This document shows, piece after piece, positions 6,952 through 63,773 of a stretch of 64,000 nt of DNA; within the stretch, counting starts at the first letter, position 1; the number at the start of each line of letters is the position of its first letter. Under the pieces are notes generated by a model, which worked only from the letters and a program-made list of their open reading frames with translations, was not told the DNA's origin and searched no databases. Position numbers and translations under genes: made by a program. The stretch lies in IMG/VR virus record IMGVR_UViG_3300027869_000006, positions 45,769 through 109,768 of that record; one strand, written 5' to 3'. This DNA comes from a virus.

Positions 6952-9900
6952 ATGACCGCGCTCACGACGAACGGTTCGGCACAAGCGGCAACCACGCTCG
7001 CTGCTGCTGGCAAGATGTTTGCGGCGACGGGTGGGACGGGTGGGAATACCTCAACCAAGGTCGCCAAGAACACGACCTATGTGCAGATATTTGCCATTGG
7101 TACGACGACGACACAAGCGGGGGTCGGGAGTATCCCTGCGCCGACGGATAGCAATTTCGCGGGTTGGATATGGGATGTGACGACCCTTGAAGGGCAGCGC
7201 ATCGCGGCGGGGACCTGGACGCCGACCTTCCACATGCTGGCCTCCTCTGCCGGCACGATTACCCCGACCGTCCAATGGTTCAAACGGTCATCGGCGGGTG
7301 TGTATACCTCCATTGGATCGGTCACCGGGTCCTCGCTCGTGCTCACTTCTTCCGCACAGGCACTTACCTTCACGCCCCCGTCCCTGGCACTCATGGACTT
7401 TGCCGTGGGTGACAAGTTCTGCATGTGGTTATGGGTCGATATTACCGTGGCCGGTGGGAGTAACTCTGGCACGATGTCGGTCGTGGAGGCGATCAGTGGG
7501 AGCACCACGGGTACCGCATCAGAGGCTCAGGCCGTCACACCGGGGTACGCCCCATCGCCAGTAGCACTCACGGCCACGCTTGCAGGAGTAGGGACGCTCT
7601 CATCGTCGTGCTATCGCACCACGATCCTGGCCGATAACCCGCTGTACTACAACCGCGCTGGCACGGCTGACTTGGGAAGTCTGGGACATACCGCCACCAT
7701 CCACGGCGGCGTCACGACCGGGCAGGCAGGCCTCCTGGTCAGCGATGTGCAGTCAAGCGACCTCTTTAATGGCTCGACCGGCTTTCTCACCGCGTCAGAT
7801 ACGGGGTTGCCGACAGGGGCCAGTCCGTGGAGTATCGAGATATGGATACAGTCTACCAATTTAACAGGTGACCATTCTATTCTCGACTTTGGGACAAGTT
7901 CGGGACTCAATTGGGCGGGTATCTATAGCGCCGCCGATCAATTCGTGGTGGGATCGTGGGCAAGCGGAGTCAATGCAAGTGCGCATGGCATCACGACTGG
8001 AACGACGTACTACGTCCTTGGCACATTCGATGGCACGAACACCTCCCTGTACGTGGGCAATCTCTCGACAGGGGCATTCAGTACCTACGGGCCTGTCGCC
8101 ATCGCGTTCAGTGTCGTGCTCTCTGGTCTCACCATTGGCGCAGATTCCGGTGGCGCCTATATCAGCGGGAATGCGCAAGAACGCGCCATCTATGGCGCAG
8201 CACTCACCGTCACGCAGGCAACGGCACACTTCCTTGCTGGCATCCAGGCGTTCACCCTCTCAACTGCGCTCGCCGACACCCTTGCTGGCGTGGGGACACT
8301 CACCGGGACGCTGTCGTTGTTAGGAGTAGCACTCACAACGACAGCGGCCGGGACTAGTCTTCTGACCGTCTCTTCCCCAACGCTTGCCACCGCGCTCACG
8401 ACGACAGAGGTCGGCAGTGGGACGCTTACCGGGACACTGTCGACCTCATTGACCCTGGGCGGTGCCACTGCCACCGGCGGTGGCACGCTTGCCGGCACGT
8501 GCTCGCTCTTCACGGCCCTCTCTATGACGATCATACCGGGTGCGGGCATCCTCACCCCAACGATGAAAGCCGCCTACACGCTGAGTGGGGGCACACTCAC
8601 CGGGTCGGGAACGTTGTCGGTCTCCGCCCCGACTCTTGCGACAGCCCTCGCGGTCGAGTGCGATGGGGTGAGCAATCTTACCCCAACCATGATCGCGAGT
8701 TTTACCTTATCCGGTACCACGTTGCCAGGCATCGGTCAGCTTTCCATCTCCGCACCATCCCTTACCACTGTACTGGCAGGTGAATGTGACGGGAGTGGAG
8801 CACTGTCCGGGCAGCTTGACGCTACCTACATGATGAGCGGTGGCACGATGGATGGTATGGGGCAACTGTCCGTCACGGTCCCCACACTCACAACAGCACT
8901 CTCCGTTGAATACGATGGGGTTGGGATGCTCTCACCGACCATTTGGGCGAGTCTCTCGCTCGCTCTTACAGAGATAGATGGCATCGGTATGCTCTCTGTC
9001 GCTGCGCCTGCACTCACGCCGCCGCTCATGGTGGAATGTGATGGGATTGGAACGTTCTCCCCTACACTCTCGGCTTCGTACACACTCTCCGGTGCGGAAA
9101 TGGATGGAGTTGGCACGCTCACGTGCATCACCAGCCTCTCGGCTGCACTGGCGGGTGAATGCGACGGCGTCGGGGCATTTCAGGCGACGCTGTCGGTCTC
9201 AGGGAGCAGTATCGCGCTGTCAGCTGAGTGTGACGGGGTTGGGACGCTTGTGGGCACGCTCTCCGCGACGGTTGCACTTGCGATTGAGTGTGACGGTAGC
9301 GGGACGCTTTCGGCCTCGCCTTCCCTCTCCACGGCACTCATGAGCGAATGTGGTGGGGTGGGTCGGCTTTTCGCCATAGTAGCAGTGACCACCGCACTTG
9401 CAGTCGAGTGTGATGGCATGGGGACCTTCACCCCGATACTCGAGGCATCCGTCCCGCTCAACCTGGCACTCACTGGAAGCAGTGCGCTCTTCCCCACGCT
9501 CTCACTGACGACCATTCTTTCCGTCAGTCTCGCGGGTGAGGGGATACTTGCCGGGACGCTCTCACTGCTGACCGCTCCACTGGGTATGACGCTTGCCGGG
9601 ACTGGCACACTCGCAGCCACGCTTGAAGCATCAACCGCCCTGACCGCGCTCATTTCAGGCAGTGGGCAGCTTGCCGGAACGCTTGCACACATCACGGCAC
9701 TCGCCTGTCTGTGCGCGGGAGTGGGCACACTTACCGGGACATACTCACTCTCGGTTGCACTGTTCCTCACGTGCGCCGCTCGCGGGACGTTCGCCTTCAT
9801 GGTCATTTCCAGGACGGGTGTGCTTGCCCAAGGCAGGAGTGGAAGTGGAACAGCGACAGGTCAAAGTGGAGTGCCTGGCGTGAGCAGTATCGGTGGGAGT

Positions 9901-12658: not shown

Positions 12659-12792
12659 AGTGGTTTTTCAGATGGGTCCATCAAGTGATGTCTTTGTTAC
12701 ACAAGAGGCGCAGCTATAGCGAAACGATCCTGGCTGAGAAGCCGATCCGTTACTATCGACTCGATGGAAGTGACACAACACGTGAGCAATGA
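12655..12792 (+). CDS. 45-aa ORF carrying only the N-terminal motif of the LamG modules
   Basis: ATGA overlap with endolysin stop; YSETILAEKPIRYYRLD resembles YRTTILADNPLYYNRAG and YASVIQADTPLWYGRGD in the tail genes. Confidence 0.45.
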   Translation: MKWFFRWVHQVMSLLHKRRSYSETILAEKPIRYYRLDGSDTTREQ

Positions 12793-13507
12793 AGAGTGCA
12801 AACTGATTGCATACCAACTCTATGATGGTGATCTCCCCATGCAAATCGTTCCGGCACCGCGCAAACGGCAGTGGATGGATCAGACGCCACAGAGTTTTGC
12901 GAACCGTTGCCTCCCGCTCTTACTGGGAAATGCGAGCGGCTGGTGGCTCTTGAACACGCACGAGATACAGGTGACCTGGAACGGCGGCACTGATCTCTCC
13001 GCGCTCACCATCGCGGGTCGGGGTAGTTCGGAGACCGGCTATGCACTGAGCCATTTTGGTAACGGTCTCTTAACTTGGAATATTCCCCTGCTCTTTTCCA
13101 CGCCCCCTGGATATAATTTGCTGGTACGTGGCCCTGCAAACTGGCCCAAAGACGGGGCATACGCACTGGACGGGCTTGTGGAGACAGATCACGCTGTGGC
13201 GACATGGACCATGAACTGGAAGATGACGCGGCCTGGCCTGACCGTCACCTTTGCCAAGGGCGAACCGATAGCACAAATCGTGCCACAGAAGCGTGGAGAA
13301 CTAGAGACATTCACCCCGCAAGTACGGAACATCAGAGAGGCACCAGAGTTACAAGCTGCATACAATGCGTGGGCATCTAGTCGCTCAACATTCAATATGG
13401 AACTGAAGAGACCAGGGTCAGAGGCAGTGAAGCGGCAATGGCAAAAGGATTACTTCCAAGCATCCCATCAAACAAAGGTCGCATTGAAGGAGTTCACAAC
13501 TCCATGA
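12764..13507 (+). CDS. DUF6065-family protein
   Basis: RQWMDQT..FANRCLPL..GN..GW, SHFGNG, GPANWPKDG, GLVETD, TMNWKMTRPG. Confidence 0.75.
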   Translation: MEVTQHVSNEECKLIAYQLYDGDLPMQIVPAPRKRQWMDQTPQSFANRCLPLLLGNASGWWLLNTHEIQVTWNGGTDLSALTIAGRGSSETGYALSHFGNGLLTWNIPLLFSTPPGYNLLVRGPANWPKDGAYALDGLVETDHAVATWTMNWKMTRPGLTVTFAKGEPIAQIVPQKRGELETFTPQVRNIREAPELQAAYNAWASSRSTFNMELKRPGSEAVKRQWQKDYFQASHQTKVALKEFTTP

Positions 13508-13543
13508 CATCTCTCTCTCATTTCTTAGACAGTTGGAGGACAT

Positions 13544-14128
13544 ATGGCAACGACACCGACAAAAACCCCGAAGCAGCAAGCCTCACTCGCAGGCGTCTGG
13601 CAGGGCATTGAGGCACCAATCATCGGTATCCTCCTCTCCCTTGCCGTAGCTATTCAGCAGTATTTTAGTACCCATAGTGCCCCAAATTGGGGAGAACTGG
13701 GAATGATCCTGTTCCCGACCGTCATTGTTGGTATTGTGCAAGCACTCAAGCAGTTCAATGCAACACTCGGGCAGGCATCAGTTCCCATCGTCACCGTCCC
13801 GCCGCCCGCACCGGTTGTCTCACCATCCGACATTGCGGCAGCGATACGACAGCAGGTACCAGGACTGGTCATACAACAGCCACCGGCACCACCGTCGTTC
13901 ATTGCGCCGTCAGTGCCACCAGGAGGATACGATACGACGCTGGTCCAACCCCTCTCATTCGCCCCTCTGACCACGCCTGCCCAGCCACAACAACCGTACA
14001 CGTGGTCACAGCCAGAACCATCCCCGACACTCACGACACCTGCGCCAGTAATTACGCCGGTATTGTCACTGCCAAGTACGTTTCCGCAAACACTCGATTT
14101 ACCAATCGTACGACCACAAATTGAGTAA
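13544..14128 (+). CDS. Holin-like membrane protein (2 TM) with Pro/Thr-rich tail
   Basis: Two TM segments, GGAGG RBS, located in the lysis region. Confidence 0.6.
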   Translation: MATTPTKTPKQQASLAGVWQGIEAPIIGILLSLAVAIQQYFSTHSAPNWGELGMILFPTVIVGIVQALKQFNATLGQASVPIVTVPPPAPVVSPSDIAAAIRQQVPGLVIQQPPAPPSFIAPSVPPGGYDTTLVQPLSFAPLTTPAQPQQPYTWSQPEPSPTLTTPAPVITPVLSLPSTFPQTLDLPIVRPQIE

Positions 14129-14129
14129 T

Positions 14130-14167
14130 AATAAAGGGTACTACATCTGCATGTAGTACCCTTTATT
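14130..14167. terminator. Bidirectional intrinsic terminator
   Basis: Perfect 17-bp stem AATAAAGGGTACTACAT-CTGC-ATGTAGTACCCTTTATT between convergent transcription units. Confidence 0.85.
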
Positions 14168-14170
14168 CAT

Positions 14171-14363
14171 CCCATACCATACCGCATCCCGCCGGACTGC
14201 ACCCCACCCAGCCTTGCCAGACATTACCCCGCATCGCCACGCCTTACCCCACCGAACTACACCTTACCAACCAGACCATGCCGAACCCGACCGGACCACG
14301 CTATACCGTACCTTACCTTACTGAACCCAGCCAAGCCGGACCTCACCATACCTACCGTGCCAT
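14171..14363 (-). ncRNA. Pentamer array A (NN-GGY units; putative gapped-code guide RNAs)
   Basis: Plus strand parses as RCC-NN: 19 units (14171-14265), 4-nt break, 16 units (14270-14349), 4-nt break, 2 units. Confidence 0.75.
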
Positions 14364-14581
14364 TAAGCGTATCGTGTTTGGTCTGTCTCCCAGTTCACTA
14401 AACGTACAGGTGTCACATCTAAGTCTGTGATAGGAATGCCATACTTTTCTTCAGCTAAACTCAGTCCTTCCTGAGCATCACTAGCGGTTATCTCACCCAC
14501 TATAGGCACCTGCTGCTTTCTTAGCTTGGCATGCACGGTAGTGTCATGTCCCTTATACCAAACATCGAACCTATGCAACAT
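14363..14581 (-). CDS. 72-aa accessory protein translationally coupled to the RAMP gene
   Basis: TAATG stop/start overlap at 14583-14579; stop abuts array A. Confidence 0.65.
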   Translation of the reverse strand: MLHRFDVWYKGHDTTVHAKLRKQQVPIVGEITASDAQEGLSLAEEKYGIPITDLDVTPVRLVNWETDQTRYA

Positions 14582-15129
14582 TACTTCACCTTTTCCCATG
14601 ACACAAGAGCAAATCTCCCATACGGCCCTTTCTTTGCAGGACGGAAGTCACCAATGCCAACAAGTCGCCCTGCATCGGTGAGTATGTCACGGATAAGACG
14701 TTCACCAACTAGATCGGTATCAATCTGAACATCAAACTCCATATTCCACTCATCGAACATTGGCCTGTGGCGTAGAATACGCCCCCCAGTCGCTTTAATG
14801 ACAACAGCCCGTGAGTCCACATGCCATTCCCCTACCAGAGGAATTTCAAATGGGCTAACATAGACCCCTGCCGCTACATCAGTTGTCGCAGCCCTCCGTC
14901 CAATTTTGTGTCGTGATGCTGCTGCAATCATTGACTGCCGAATATTCTCAGCCGGATAGAATGGGCTATGTTCATTGGTATACAGGCGACTTGCCGCATC
15001 TTCATGAGGAGCCGGATATTCTTTCCGACCATGTGTTCCTGAAGTTGCTTCCTCTGCCGCTGCCTCATGAAAACGATTCACGATGAGCGGCGTCAAACTC
15101 GTAATGTTGACCTTGTACGTTACAATCAT
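14581..15129 (-). CDS. Stand-alone Cas7/RAMP-like RNA-binding protein (Vipr-like), 182 aa
   Basis: N-terminal strand YKVNITSLTPLIV, PAENIRQSM helix, thumb-like DSRAVVIKATGGRILRHRPMF, C-terminal Gly-rich loop AGRLVGIGDFRPAKKGPYGRF; GAAAGGA RBS before ATG 15129; flanked by pentamer arrays. Confidence 0.75.
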   Translation of the reverse strand: MIVTYKVNITSLTPLIVNRFHEAAAEEATSGTHGRKEYPAPHEDAASRLYTNEHSPFYPAENIRQSMIAAASRHKIGRRAATTDVAAGVYVSPFEIPLVGEWHVDSRAVVIKATGGRILRHRPMFDEWNMEFDVQIDTDLVGERLIRDILTDAGRLVGIGDFRPAKKGPYGRFALVSWEKVK

Positions 15130-15160
15130 GTGTGTTATCCTTTCTGTGTGAGTAACTTGT

Positions 15161-15192
15161 GTGGTGCCCTGCCCCAGTGGTAGGGCTACCAC
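15161..15192 (-). promoter_or_regulatory. GC-rich hairpin between array B and the RAMP gene (RNA 3' end, processing or attenuation element)
   Basis: GTGGT-GCCCTGCC-CCAGT-GGTAGGGC-TACCAC. Confidence 0.5.
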
Positions 15193-15211
15193 GCGAAACA
15201 AAATGAACAAA

Positions 15212-15604
15212 ACCATACCAGACCGGACCTCGCCAAACCCGGCCTTGCCAGACCGGGCCTTGCCAGACCGGGCCAAACCCGACTACACTAGACCTCATCA
15301 TGCCACACCTCCCATACCATACCCATCCTTACCGAACTGCGCCAGACCGCAACGTACCAGACCGCGGCAAGCCGGGCCGGACCCAACCTAACCTATTCCT
15401 CAGCAAACCATGCTATACCCCACCTGACCGTAGCACTCCTTCCAAACCGCACCATACCCAACCAAGCAGGACCCCGCGTCACCGCACCTGATCGGGCCAT
15501 ACCCCACCTGACCAAGCCGTGCCTACCTTGCCGCACCAAACCTCACCTCACTCAGTCTTGCCTCGCTGGACCTAGTCGCACCGAACCTGACCTTGCCGTG
15601 CCAT
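15212..15604 (-). ncRNA. Pentamer array B (NN-GGY units; putative gapped-code guide RNAs)
   Basis: Segments of 19 (15212-15306), 16 (15311-15390), 8 (15397-15436), 16 (15441-15520) and 16 (15525-15604) RCC-NN units, separated by 4-nt (one 6-nt) phase breaks. Confidence 0.75.
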
Positions 15605-16237
15605 AATCCTGCTATAGGCCAATTTCACGCAGAACTCAACGTCATTCCATACCTGGGAGCCAGTGAAGCGAAGAACGTACCAGCCTTGATCTTCAATCGT
15701 ATGCTGTCGCATATAGTCTCTATTTCGGTCTCTCTTGTGACTATGGAACGCTTGCCCATCAAGTTCGATTACTATCTTTGCTTCAACATGGGCAAAGTCT
15801 ACACGATACTTACTAATCCGATGCTGTCGCTCAAGAGGGATATCTGGATACAGCAGGCACCATGCTTCATAAAAGGCTTCCTCGATGGGACTTCCATTCT
15901 TGACGGATTGCTGAATTTCCCGTAAACGATTACGAGCCTCATTAAGTGCAGCCTCACGTTGTTGATTAGCAAGTCGCAAGGCTTCTACTCGCTCTGCTTC
16001 TAGTGCTTGACGACGTTCTAGGGCCTGCTCTCGCTTCTCCCGAATGGTTGCTACTTCAATCTCTCTCTGGACAGATTGCTGATGCTCATTCGCACGACGC
16101 TTCAACTCCCTAGCTTCCTGAATCATACTAGCTTTCTCTGCCGCAAGTTGACGTTGTATGGCAAGTTCATGCTCTCTGTCAGCTTGAAGTTTTCGTTGTT
16201 GTTCTTGATAGTCGTTGAATGCTTGCCAGTCCATCAT
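15572..16237 (-). CDS. DUF559/Vsr-like PD-(D/E)XK endonuclease with long N-terminal coiled coil
   Basis: SPIEEAFY, ERQHRISKYRVDF, IVIELDG..FH, RDYMRQ..IEDQGWYVLRFTGSQV; the last codons overlap array B. Confidence 0.85.
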   Translation of the reverse strand: MMDWQAFNDYQEQQRKLQADREHELAIQRQLAAEKASMIQEARELKRRANEHQQSVQREIEVATIREKREQALERRQALEAERVEALRLANQQREAALNEARNRLREIQQSVKNGSPIEEAFYEAWCLLYPDIPLERQHRISKYRVDFAHVEAKIVIELDGQAFHSHKRDRNRDYMRQHTIEDQGWYVLRFTGSQVWNDVEFCVKLAYSRIMARQGQVRCD

Positions 16238-16239
16238 GC

Positions 16240-16413
16240 TTATTGTTCTCGTTTTGTAGGCTTTTGCTGTTTCTGTTGTACTCGTTCTAATTCTTGGTTC
16301 GCTAAACGGTCAAGAAGACTCACGATACTCTCCCCTGTGATGGCATGAAGCATACGCAAGGTGGTAAGTGTCCTTGTCCAGATGCGAGTTGTTTTGTAGT
16401 CATCGGTAGCCAT
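16240..16413 (-). CDS. 57-aa ribbon-helix-helix-like regulator (not in the ORF track)
   Basis: MATDDYKTTRIWTRTLTTLRMLHAITGESIVSLLDRLANQELERVQQKQQKPTKREQ; strand-helix-helix pattern; leaderless start 6 nt after the -10 box. Confidence 0.6.
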   Translation of the reverse strand: MATDDYKTTRIWTRTLTTLRMLHAITGESIVSLLDRLANQELERVQQKQQKPTKREQ

Positions 16414-16419
16414 GAAGTT

Positions 16420-16448
16420 ATTTTACTACAAACAAGTGTTCTTGTCAA
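16420..16448 (-). promoter_or_regulatory. Sigma70-type promoter of the RAMP/array operon
   Basis: TTGACA-17 nt-TAAAAT on the minus strand. Confidence 0.8.
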
Positions 16449-16508
16449 GAGGAAAAGAAGACGCCCTTGACACAAGCATATACTAAGAGCAGAAGGGGGA
16501 ATTTTTCT

Positions 16509-17069
16509 TTGGAACGCGGGTCCGTTATTCTTTTTGAGAAGGATGGCAGTCTCTTCAATTGGCTCATCACGAAAGCAACTCATGGTCCCTATGTCCATGT
16601 GGAAATTTGCCTGGGCGAGGAACGCCTGATCGGTGCTCACGGTAACCGTCGCGGCATCTATGAGCGTGATTGGGCCGATGCACCTTCGTTAGTGACGGAG
16701 GTCTCTCTCTCCCCCTATGCCGATGAAGAGCACATCGAGCAGGCCCTTACCTGGGCGCAAGAGCAACAGGGGCATCCCTATGGATGGTGGGATATCGCCA
16801 GTCAGTCCATCAAGTTCTTGTGGCCAACGACACCGCTCCGGTTCAGCAAGTCAGACGCATGGGGGTGTGCAGACTATGTGACCCGCTATCTGATACAAGC
16901 AGGGGTGGCCTTGCCAGAAGACTTCATGGACCCTGGGAAAAACTCGCCCAACGATATTGGACGGTTGTTCCATCTCGTTCCACAACGGCCACAACGCATC
17001 AGAAAACGGGAGAGAGAGTTGAGGAAAGGTCATGCCATTGCCGCATTTGCCGCCTCCAGACGAGGATGA
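16509..17069 (+). CDS. Permuted papain-like amidase (YiiX/YebB, NlpC/P60 superfamily)
   Basis: G-S-V-I-L-F start motif, His in YVHVEI precedes Cys in WGCADYV, GHPYGW, SPND; AAGGGGG RBS before TTG 16509. Confidence 0.75.
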   Translation: MERGSVILFEKDGSLFNWLITKATHGPYVHVEICLGEERLIGAHGNRRGIYERDWADAPSLVTEVSLSPYADEEHIEQALTWAQEQQGHPYGWWDIASQSIKFLWPTTPLRFSKSDAWGCADYVTRYLIQAGVALPEDFMDPGKNSPNDIGRLFHLVPQRPQRIRKRERELRKGHAIAAFAASRRG

Positions 17070-18027: not shown

Positions 18028-18537
18028 TTAGACTCCTTCCTGAGCAGGTGCTACTTCATCATTCAGTAGTTCAATACCTGCTTGTACGTATGCCTCTATC
18101 CAAGCAACTTCACGCCATCTAGGATTGACACCTTCATCGACAACTTCTAACGTTAACATCCAAGGAAGCATATGGGCATCTAAAATGGCTTGTATCCTAG
18201 CATGCTTGCGTTGATTATTATCAGAGAGCAAGAGGTGTTGCTTAAAACGAAGATAGAGGTTATTCGTCAATCCGATGTAGAAAACTTGATGGTCTCTTGG
18301 GTCAATGATCCCATAAATCACAGTGACATTTTCTTGGTAATATGCCCCTGTATTACCAGTAGATGCTATGCGACTATTGACACGATCCGATTTGTGACCA
18401 TCATAGAAGGAAAGTTTTTTAATGGGGTGCTTGCCATCCTGGGCATGAGGTGATAGAGTTGTCACGATGCATCTCCGATCTTTAGTCAGATGTATCAACC
18501 GTCTTGAAGGCGTACTCTCGCCTTCAAGACATAACAA
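18028..18537 (-). CDS. GIY-YIG nuclease
   Basis: VIYGIIDP...FYIGLT...RFKQH...REVAWI...LLN; start uncertain. Confidence 0.8.
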   Translation of the reverse strand: MLCLEGESTPSRRLIHLTKDRRCIVTTLSPHAQDGKHPIKKLSFYDGHKSDRVNSRIASTGNTGAYYQENVTVIYGIIDPRDHQVFYIGLTNNLYLRFKQHLLLSDNNQRKHARIQAILDAHMLPWMLTLEVVDEGVNPRWREVAWIEAYVQAGIELLNDEVAPAQEGV

Positions 18538-28308: not shown

Positions 28309-29537
28309 TAGCCGCCCCCTTCCGCTTTCGCGGTATAGTGCGCACGGAGGGCGGCCATGCGCTGCGATCCCTCGGTTGGCCCTATGAGTGGAGGCGCGTG
28401 CCTAATGCCCTGCACCTTCGCCTTCTCAATTTTCTCCAATTGCTCTTTGATGGCCCCGGCAACCTCACAGATATCAATGCTCCGCTGACACCAATACTCA
28501 TCAATAGTCAACATGCGGGTACGGGCGGCAATCACCTCAGCCTGTGTATAGTTTTTCACCATGCGATAGGCACATGTATTCGCCTGGGCAATTTGCCGAT
28601 CCGTCAGTAACTCCTTGCCCCCGCGCCACATCTGGAAGAGGTGCAGGCAGGCAGGAACATCCCACTTCACGGGTGATGGGGCAGTAACAGGTACCCCATC
28701 CCGCAGGACCGTGTGCTTGATACCCCCTGTCGGTTGCAAGGAAGCCGCGAGCGACACAGCTACCTGCTTGTCCGTCGGTGGCCCTTCGTCTTCTCGCTCC
28801 TCTTCGGTCTCAGGTACAGGGGATGTATCTTCAAGAGGTGAGAGAGGGAGAACAGGCTCAAGTTGTGAAAATGTTGGAACAACCGGAATCTCTCTCTCTA
28901 AGTCTAAAGAAGATTCTGTAATAGATTCTAATAAGAGGTTAGAATTTTCAACCTCCCCAGGTTCAAAATCTGAAGGTGGGATGTCCGAATTTTCAACCTC
29001 CCCACTTTCTAAATTAGAACCTGGGAGGTTCGGAATTAGAACCTCCCCCCCACCTTCGGAATTAGAACCTCCCTTGAGGAAGAAGCTAAATGTATCCTTG
29101 GGTAACTGGCTCATTGCCTCTTGAATGAGTGGACGGTTGAGGGTATAGAGCGGCGCACCAAATTCCTCCCCTGGTTTACTCCGTGTATAAATCAATGTCT
29201 TCTTAATGAGGGAGTTGATAGCCAGGCGGAGCGTCGTCTTCGAGAGAGAAAGGGGATGCTTTGCTCCTACTTTTTTAGAGTCGAATCGGTAGAGTCGGGC
29301 CAGGATTTGTGTATAGGAGAGACGTACCCAGTAGACCTTTGGTTCAGGTGGGGGAGTGCGTTTTTCTTCAACTGCCTTCGCTACGCGGGTTTGCCAGTTC
29401 TCTTTCTGCTTGACCATATCATATTCAATGATACGCATAATCTTGGCTTCCAGTTCGTCCTGGCAAATGAGGACGAACTCAAGTCGCTCCATAAGAAAAA
29501 GGTTAAAGGGAAATTCAAAGACCGTTGCTTCACTCAT
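28308..29537 (-). CDS. Phage replication initiator with internal iterons
   Basis: Directly upstream of dnaB; wHTH-like LSKTTLRLAINSLIKKTLI; internal direct repeats. Confidence 0.7.
   Translation of the reverse strand: MSEATVFEFPFNLFLMERLEFVLICQDELEAKIMRIIEYDMVKQKENWQTRVAKAVEEKRTPPPEPKVYWVRLSYTQILARLYRFDSKKVGAKHPLSLSKTTLRLAINSLIKKTLIYTRSKPGEEFGAPLYTLNRPLIQEAMSQLPKDTFSFFLKGGSNSEGGGEVLIPNLPGSNLESGEVENSDIPPSDFEPGEVENSNLLLESITESSLDLEREIPVVPTFSQLEPVLPLSPLEDTSPVPETEEEREDEGPPTDKQVAVSLAASLQPTGGIKHTVLRDGVPVTAPSPVKWDVPACLHLFQMWRGGKELLTDRQIAQANTCAYRMVKNYTQAEVIAARTRMLTIDEYWCQRSIDICEVAGAIKEQLEKIEKAKVQGIRHAPPLIGPTEGSQRMAALRAHYTAKAEGGG
28935..29073. repeat. Iterons (putative replication origin)
   Basis: GAATTTTCAACCTCCCCA at 28942 and 28987; TTCGGAATTAGAACCTCCC at 29029 and 29055; AATTAGAACCT at 29012. 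Confidence 0.7.

Positions 29538-63726: not shown

Positions 63727-63773
<47 letters not shown>

Follow-up and report, generated by a model that had tools for sequence, protein, structure and literature searches.

VIPR systems are virus-borne loci that combine a small RAMP protein (Vipr), an accessory gene (vap), and guide RNAs (vrRNAs) made of 9 to 16 YNNGG repeats (10.64898/2026.04.26.720920). The NN bases of a vrRNA pair with double-stranded DNA, skipping one target base that is mostly the wobble position of a codon (10.64898/2026.04.26.720920), and the same wobble-aligned 1-nt skip rule is reported in 10.64898/2026.10.15.759431. Each repeat is bound by one Vipr protomer, with N4-N5 of the repeat pairing antiparallel with N1-N2 of the target (10.64898/2026.04.26.720927). 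Target calling requires an NN match of at least 80%, and own contigs are never targeted; when NN pairing is perturbed, silencing is lost, and the VIPRs characterized to date silence transcription without cutting (10.64898/2026.04.26.720920). The vipr genes of rivals are often vrRNA targets, and guides against repetitive host DNA have been described as decoys (10.64898/2026.10.15.759431). In addition, the legend of fig. S18 in the VIPR discovery paper mentions “staggered arrays” with a 1-nt overlap (10.64898/2026.04.26.720920).

We analyzed a window of 64,000 nucleotides at the right-hand end of one viral contig, 109,768 bp long, that had been assembled from soil metagenome data. The window contains an operon with a vipr homologue and arrays of five-base units, and its features are listed in Table 1. 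On the minus strand, the operon runs in the order promoter-like site, 57-aa ORF, DUF559 nuclease gene, arrays, vipr, a doubtful 78-aa ORF, array, and hairpin. This cassette is inverted relative to both of its flanking genes and has its own predicted promoter and terminator; the hairpin probably acts as a two-way terminator. The 57-aa ORF had no family match and was found in none of the relatives. The 78-aa ORF, which overlaps the end of vipr and occupies the 220 nt ahead of the downstream array, likewise matched no family and was absent from relatives; in the nearest relative, L060 (identical to L068), the array follows directly after vipr.

Table 1. Features of the VIPR cassette and its flanks (window coordinates), with one guide from related loci (coordinates of those loci)
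Feature	Position	Strand	Description
Left-flanking orphan gene, 194 aa	13544..14128	+	Two hydrophobic segments, Pro-rich tail
Resident site mirrored by the guide under review	14042..14095	+	A-P-V-I-T-P-V-L-S-L-P-S-T-F-P-Q-T-L, C-terminal codons of ORF 13544-14128
Perfect 17-bp hairpin	14130..14167		Between left gene and VIPR operon
Guide (vrRNA) under review	14171..14265	-	19 GGY-NN units; distal, last of downstream array
Junction unit, 4 nt	14266..14269	-	ACCA (transcript GGT-T), from unit parse
Sister guide	14270..14349	-	16 units; mirrors right-flanking gene near its start
78-aa ORF between vipr and downstream array	14363..14599	-	Doubtful as gene
vipr, 183-aa RAMP protein	14581..15132	-	PDB 36pp match, AF2 fold
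Upstream vrRNA arrays	15203..15610	-	About five guides of 8-19 units; 4- or 6-nt junctions
Coiled-coil + DUF559 (Vsr-like) endonuclease, 221 aa	15572..16237	-	Pfam PF04480, E = 1.3e-15
First operon ORF, 57 aa	16240..16413	-	From ORF list
Promoter-like site TTGACA-17-TAAAAT	16420..16448	-	11/12 consensus matches; consensus match only
Site mirrored by sister guide	16506..16553	+	Near start of right-flanking ORF 16467-17069 (phrog_1128)
10-unit guide upstream of vipr in related loci	L083:3373-3422, L085:3836-3885, L086:3381-3430		Matches rivals' vipr

To the left of the cassette, the 194-aa ORF closes a lysis block on the plus strand, where it is preceded by an amidase endolysin gene and then a gene for a DUF6065 protein. 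Its product matched no Pfam or PHROG family. The preliminary description of this DNA had called the gene holin-like, a guess from its position and its two hydrophobic segments that no family match backs. Farther afield, we observed a 169-aa ORF on the minus strand (18028-18537), 1.6 kb to the right of the cassette, with a GIY-YIG catalytic domain (E = 1.1e-5); its product is likely a free-standing homing endonuclease. The window also contains a 45-nt tandem repeat of 2.5 copies at 28935-29048 and, at the end of the contig, a perfect (GA)20 microsatellite at 63730-63769.

The Vipr protein of this phage matched PDB 36pp, “SUSP1 Vipr protein,” in a phmmer search (E = 6.7e-8), with the similarity confined to residues 111-175. 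We modeled its structure with AF2 using 34 homologues as input (pLDDT 86, pTM 0.81), and the best folds retrieved by Foldseek were Cas7-family RAMPs, namely Csm3, Cmr4, and type VII Cas7 (E about 1e-6). PADLOC returned no match for vipr, and Rfam returned no family across 13900-16700. In the DUF559 protein, the D...E-x-D-G motif is retained in an alignment with PDB 3hrl; given its place in the same operon as vipr, this gene is a candidate accessory (vap) gene. Two earlier ideas for the arrays, a TRAP-like protein-binding RNA and a DNA-phasing repeat, were dropped once Vipr homology had been shown.

Homologues of Vipr are numerous (237 in the protein collection), and the loci encoding them share the architecture of this one. 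GGY-NN arrays were present on both sides of vipr, on its strand, in all eight of the first relatives from IMG/VR, and beside vipr in 55 of the 81 loci scanned after a profile search. The Vipr proteins of these relatives are 29 to 70% identical, and their arrays carry unrelated NN strings, with almost no cross-identity among 182 guides from the 55 loci. The closest Vipr relatives, at 72 to 75% identity, are on long metagenome contigs; one relative of this phage is on a contig labeled Ktedonobacteraceae. Guide junctions of 4 nt also occur in the nearest relative, L060, and a DUF559 homologue is located upstream of vipr in the two nearest relatives, L060/L068 and L069, in different genomic contexts.

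Several features therefore identify the locus as a VIPR: a Vipr homologue, YNNGG repeats of at least four units that flank vipr on its strand, a linked accessory gene, a GGY scaffold that is conserved among relatives while NN is hypervariable, and an NN match to its own contig below 80%. The closest characterized systems are the type II VIPRs of Escherichia phage SUSP1 and a Pseudomonas fulva prophage. Like these, the locus is virus-borne, encodes a RAMP homologous to SUSP1 Vipr, has GGY-NN pentamer arrays on either side of vipr and on the same strand, has a putative decode with one skipped base in wobble alignment, and has no self-target at 80% or above. It differs in guide length (16 to 19 units, compared to 9 to 16 in the exemplars), in the extent of identity to SUSP1 Vipr, which is limited to the C-terminal third, and in its accessory gene, which encodes a coiled-coil DUF559 nuclease rather than the DNA-binding vap of type II. 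In addition, its guides abut via 4-nt junctions with no conserved 3' tail or pseudoknot, whereas type II guides of 9 to 16 units are each followed by a structured tail. Because there is no 3' tail between guides and the accessory gene encodes a nuclease, the locus is probably a VIPR of a type other than type II. We carry the skip rule over to this Vipr by analogy with the distant type II proteins. The 4-nt junctions look like the “staggered arrays” mentioned in the fig. S18 legend of the discovery paper.

The structural matches also invite comparison with the Cas7 backbones of Class 1 CRISPR-Cas systems (Csm3, Cmr4, and type VII Cas7). In those backbones, too, each protomer holds one segment of the guide and bases are flipped at regular intervals, but their period is 6 nt with 5 read bases, compared to 5 nt with 2 read bases in VIPR. 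Tandem Repeats Finder (TRF), repeat searches, and inspection of neighboring genes revealed no CRISPR repeats, spacers, Cas1/Cas2, or other cas genes at the locus; its neighbors are lysis genes, a nuclease gene, and unknowns, and we do not class it as CRISPR-Cas.

We parsed the arrays into units by dynamic programming. In a reading of 13400-16500, a strict five-base period occurs in three stretches (14171/14172-14365, 15203-15401, and 15437-15610). Together, the arrays at 14171-14365 and 15203-15610 comprise 113 full units, of which 85 have an exact GGY and 28 are one letter off. Single 4-nt units, and in one place a 6-nt unit, divide the arrays into runs of 16 to 19 units, apart from one run of 8. 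No further GGY-NN array was found elsewhere in the 110-kb phage genome. Within guide 15212-15306, there is an internal 15-nt tandem (TRF 15218-15274) in which the NN pattern TT-AG-GG is repeated, so its target would be read as a 9-nt tandem repeat.

The guide at the center of this study is the last one of the downstream array. Given the homology and fold of Vipr, and the GGY-NN arrays beside vipr in relatives, 14171-14265 is one vrRNA guide of a phage-borne VIPR system. Its units start at 14171 + 5k and read R-CC-NN on the plus strand and GGY-NN in the transcript; the 4-nt junction shifts the register between it and the next guide. In plus-strand order, its NN values are AT AT GC CC GG GC CC CA TT AG TT CC TC AC TT CC GA AC TT, exactly as given in the preliminary description when the guide is re-parsed into 19 units. 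Its GGY scaffold is no less intact than that of the remaining array. The two 3'-most units (AT AT) fall inside a 14-nt motif (transcript GGTATGGTATGGGA) that ends two guides, at 14171-14184 and 15311-15324, and these two units may not be guide letters at all. The shared motif may be a short common 3' end or may stem from recent duplication; no such motif was seen in L060.

We decoded the guide by taking each NN as codon positions 1 and 2 and sliding the guide along both strands in all frames. The last 13 NN units match 14057-14095, which is in frame with ORF 13544-14128 and has the resident codons CCG GTA TTG TCA CTG CCA AGT ACG TTT CCG CAA ACA CTC, which encode P V L S L P S T F P Q T L. In this alignment, 11 of 13 residues are compatible and 7 of 13 dinucleotides are identical, which reproduces both counts first reported for this site. 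The 11/13 match is the top amino acid fit in the window over both strands and all frames, and none of 500 order shuffles equaled it (maximum 9). To avoid dependence on those 13 units, the genome-wide test did not pre-select them and instead applied a local +1/-1 score to all 19 units across the 109,768 bp in four orientations; the same site was again the best, with a score of 9 that was reached by 3 of 2,000 order shuffles (P = 0.0015). A BLOSUM-weighted local score of 45 gave P = 0.003. If a one-codon gap is allowed, the similarity extends upstream, with GC CC GG aligned to GCG CCA GTA at 14042-14050. The gene with this fit is only 76 bp from the guide. Since the alignment keeps to the frame in which a real ORF is read, each skipped base falls on a wobble position. 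The gapped guide (NN.NN.NN) with a skip at the wobble position, as proposed from the sequence in the preliminary description, is the same as the published VIPR code (10.64898/2026.04.26.720920; 10.64898/2026.10.15.759431).

The nucleotide match behaves differently from the amino acid match. Identity at 7 of 13 dinucleotides was reached by 43% of shuffles, so NN identity is at chance level; of the two measures, only the amino acid fit exceeds the shuffled-NN null that had been called for. A resemblance by accident between a CC-rich guide and a proline-rich tail could draw on this chance-level identity and on the low complexity of the region. We consider such an accident hardly credible, given how rarely composition-preserving shuffles reach the score genome-wide, the position of the match in the adjacent gene and in frame, and the independent match of the sister guide to the other flank.

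That second match came from the same type of decode. The sister guide aligns with 16506-16553 with a BLOSUM local score of 46, which none of 300 shuffles equaled. Its spelling adds three Ser/Leu swaps relative to the resident codons, and the seven residues that it changes are all replaced conservatively. For the four larger upstream guides, the BLOSUM local decode detected no mirrored site in the phage genome.

None of the guides is a good match to the genome that carries it. Against their own genome, the six guides reached at best an NN identity of 7 to 9 of 15 to 20 units (top 9/20), and self-targeting at 80% NN or above was absent. For the guide under review, the resident match of 7/13 (7/19 over the whole guide) is far below 80%, so the phage should be immune to its own guide, and at 7 of 19 units the resident gene is no target. 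We therefore regard it as very unlikely that the guide regulates its own genome by pairing partially with the resident 3' end and tuning a lysis-block gene. Its position is suggestive of such a role, since it adjoins the left gene, is convergent with it, and is antisense to its mRNA; however, the 7/19 match is no better than that of shuffled guides, and published VIPR silencing is lost on NN perturbation, with no self-hits at 80% or above (10.64898/2026.04.26.720920).

The mismatches between the guide and the resident gene are not distributed like random changes. Of the six NN mismatches in the 13 units, four are swaps between the codon families of Ser (TCN/AGY) or Leu (CTN/TTR): TCA/AG, CTG/TT, AGT/TC, and CTC/TT (resident/guide). 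The amino acid is kept at all four of these sites. The other two mismatches are residue changes, V versus H/Q and Q versus D/E. Under the genetic code, a random different dinucleotide keeps the residue at a six-fold site with a probability of 1/15 per site. Because the mismatches preserve amino acids to this extent, we read the guide as spelling a real alternative coding of the left gene's peptide and not a decayed copy of it.

This pattern bears on the idea that the guide is a relic, which once matched an ancestral or donor neighbor gene (for example, if the cassette arrived by recombination together with its flanks) and now has no living target, leaving a fossil similarity. Such a history would account for the partial similarity, for the gap needed by the 3' units, for the orphan status of the left gene, and for the failure to find a target in the public collections searched. 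However, random decay would not keep the amino acid at four of four differing six-fold sites, the GGY scaffold is as intact as in the other guides, and mirroring is seen again in independent relatives, in one case alongside living targets in rivals. On balance, we judge a relic to be improbable.

Whether the codon-family swaps were selected is a separate matter. For guide 14171-14265 alone, the excess of swaps has P = 0.08. Taking both flank-directed guides together, the carrier uses the other codon family at seven of nine conserved six-fold sites (P = 0.016 given the phage's codon usage, 0.09 with the most lenient null). With these values, we rejected the swap excess as proof of selected self-immunity; it is only suggestive as a sign of it. 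We also observed that the allele spelled by the guide has TT (TTR) at all three Leu positions, although TTR accounts for only 18% of the Leu codons of this phage. A rival of different base composition would fit this pattern as well as selection would.

The preliminary description proposed that the true target is a homologous allele of the left gene in a related phage, so we searched for such an allele in several ways. The 194-aa left protein retrieved only itself from 5.8 billion proteins in a word-seeded search, and full HMMER detected no homologue among 1.84 billion representatives; the homologous-protein search covered the intermediate length band. IMG/VR contained no relatives of the left gene or the right-flank gene, and blastn found nothing matching 12700-16500 among 50,697 phage records. 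Among sequencing runs, the only one listed as containing this DNA is the probable source soil metagenome, with no RNA run listed, and no variants of the region were found among the contigs of that metagenome. We also searched for the gapped guide pattern itself. In IMG/VR, an 11-unit seed gave 0 matches and three 8-unit seeds gave 36, 14, and 9; a 10-unit seed gave 1 match in the metagenome collection and 8 in GTDB genomes. All of these matches stop at the seed, and the best (12/19 units) is at chance level, so the pattern search across the three collections with seeds of 8 to 11 units, suggested earlier as a decisive check, yielded only chance matches. These scans require an exact seed, and a target with scattered mismatches would escape them. 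Comparing guides with loci gave the same result in both directions: none of the phage's six guides reached a 72% NN match in 154 fetched loci, and no relatives' guide matched this phage genome at 72% NN. Of the earlier proposal, then, the gapped wobble-skipping guide is supported, and the homologous allele is absent from the collections searched.

Related phages were examined for the same arrangement in their own loci. We decoded 176 guides of related loci against their own 10 to 16 kb, using a cutoff of z >= 4. At this cutoff, 12 guides (about eight of them independent) mirror an ORF in their own locus, mostly 0.1 to 1.6 kb from the cassette. As in the soil phage, the NN identity of the own copy is low at the mirrored ORFs (50 to 64%), with further Leu, Ser, and Arg swaps. 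A decoy control, in which guides were compared with unrelated loci, gave 0 of 151 guide-decoy pairs at z = 4. Mirroring guides with z from 4 to 10 were seen in L139 (8623-8707 versus 7553-7603) and also in L102, L089, L075, L090, L130, and L091. No rival alleles were found for the guides of these seven loci.

In one case, rival alleles are in hand. The 10-unit guide of L083 matches the first vipr codons of eight other IMG/VR loci at 8 to 9 of 10 NN in wobble alignment, whereas against the vipr of its own locus this guide, which L083, L085, and L086 share, reaches only 7 of 10 NN, with one of the differences being a CTA/TTR Leu swap. It follows that a guide spelling the allele of a rival while mismatching the carrier's own copy does occur in this Vipr family. 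The finding agrees with the published targeting of rivals' vipr genes by vrRNAs (10.64898/2026.10.15.759431). The sister guide and these relatives with the same arrangement, including the one with rival alleles in hand, make a homologous allele in a related phage plausible as the true target of the guide, by analogy.

Building on the observed array and operon, the homology and fold of Vipr, the significance of the decode, and the absence of a self-match, we consider it probable that the guide is aimed at the copy of the left gene carried by closely related, competing phages and that the carrier is immune through its own coding. In this mechanism, 14171-14265 would be expressed from the minus strand and processed as the last vrRNA of the VIPR operon. 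One Vipr protomer per GGY triplet would present two variable bases, as established for SUSP1 and P. fulva, and by the same analogy these bases would pair with double-stranded DNA, skipping every third target base. The guide would thereby spell the wobble-aligned, differently coded C-terminal codons of the gene directly to its left, and the left-gene copy of sibling phages, as the rival allele, would be silenced or cut. The carrier's copy would be spared by its Ser/Leu family swaps, two amino acid changes, and one-codon indel. Codon-family swaps are the only silent changes visible to a wobble-skipping guide.

This mechanism resembles that of the vrRNAs described in 10.64898/2026.10.15.759431, which aim at competitors' coding sequence with a skip at the wobble position, so that ordinary silent mutations provide no escape. 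The targets in that study are satellites, host repeats, and rivals' vipr and vrRNA genes, whereas the genes mirrored here are two ordinary phage genes that flank the cassette. Moreover, the carrier's own copies of these genes differ by six-fold-codon swaps, which would be a loophole in the published wobble logic.

The arrangement of two guides directed at two flanks also raises the possibility that the cassette spreads by RNA-guided homing, or marker exclusion. The two guides would bring the DUF559 nuclease to the flanks of the empty site in cassette-free kin, and in a co-infection the cut genome would be repaired from the carrier, with both the cassette and its recoded, immune flanks being copied across. 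This reading refines the one aimed at competing phages, and the two can hold together. Free-standing homing endonucleases of T4-like phages, Seg and Mob, are known for intronless homing and marker exclusion. The comparison with them concerns anatomy alone: in both cases there is a selfish intergenic cassette, a target in the neighbor gene of cassette-less relatives, and a carrier flank that is polymorphic and immune. Unlike in Seg and Mob, recognition here would be by an RNA guide and not by the nuclease's own DNA-binding domain.

Several observations are consistent with homing. The guides point at both flanks, about 35 to 100 bp from the cassette ends, and the inverted cassette is self-contained, with its own predicted promoter and terminator. 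The DUF559 motif is kept, and the gene's position upstream of vipr is shared by the two nearest relatives despite their different contexts. The mirrored sites of relatives also cluster close to the cassette, within the 0.1 to 1.6 kb noted above. On the other side, no cassette-free (empty-site) kin genome was found in IMG/VR or the 50,697 phage records, characterized VIPRs silence and do not cut, and four of the six guides of this phage mirror nothing nearby. In the two nearest relatives, which share the nuclease gene, flank mirroring is unconvincing: the best of six guides in L060 has P = 0.03, and L069 reaches only z = 2.96, below the cutoff of 4. We therefore hold homing to be a tentative proposal, less probable than the action against competing phages that it would refine.

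The gapped-guide reading corresponds to the VIPR code published in 2026, so the mechanism is known, and because its class is already described, the locus is best seen as a distant new VIPR from a soil phage. What goes beyond the literature we searched is that its guides point at both genes flanking the cassette, in a coding that the carrier avoids. That literature contains no description of guides that mirror the flanking genes of their own cassette, nor of DUF559 or homing in connection with VIPR. Related phages show this arrangement again in about a dozen of their guides, and in this sub-clade it is accompanied by a nuclease. If our reading is true, VIPR cassettes would be linked units of weapon plus immunity, or RNA-guided homing elements, and the pressure that guides once exerted on phage genomes could be read from the scars left as codon-family swaps. 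If homing is true, VIPR would be a natural RNA-guided gene drive among phages, with swaps at six-fold-degenerate codons as the escape route from a wobble-skipping guide.
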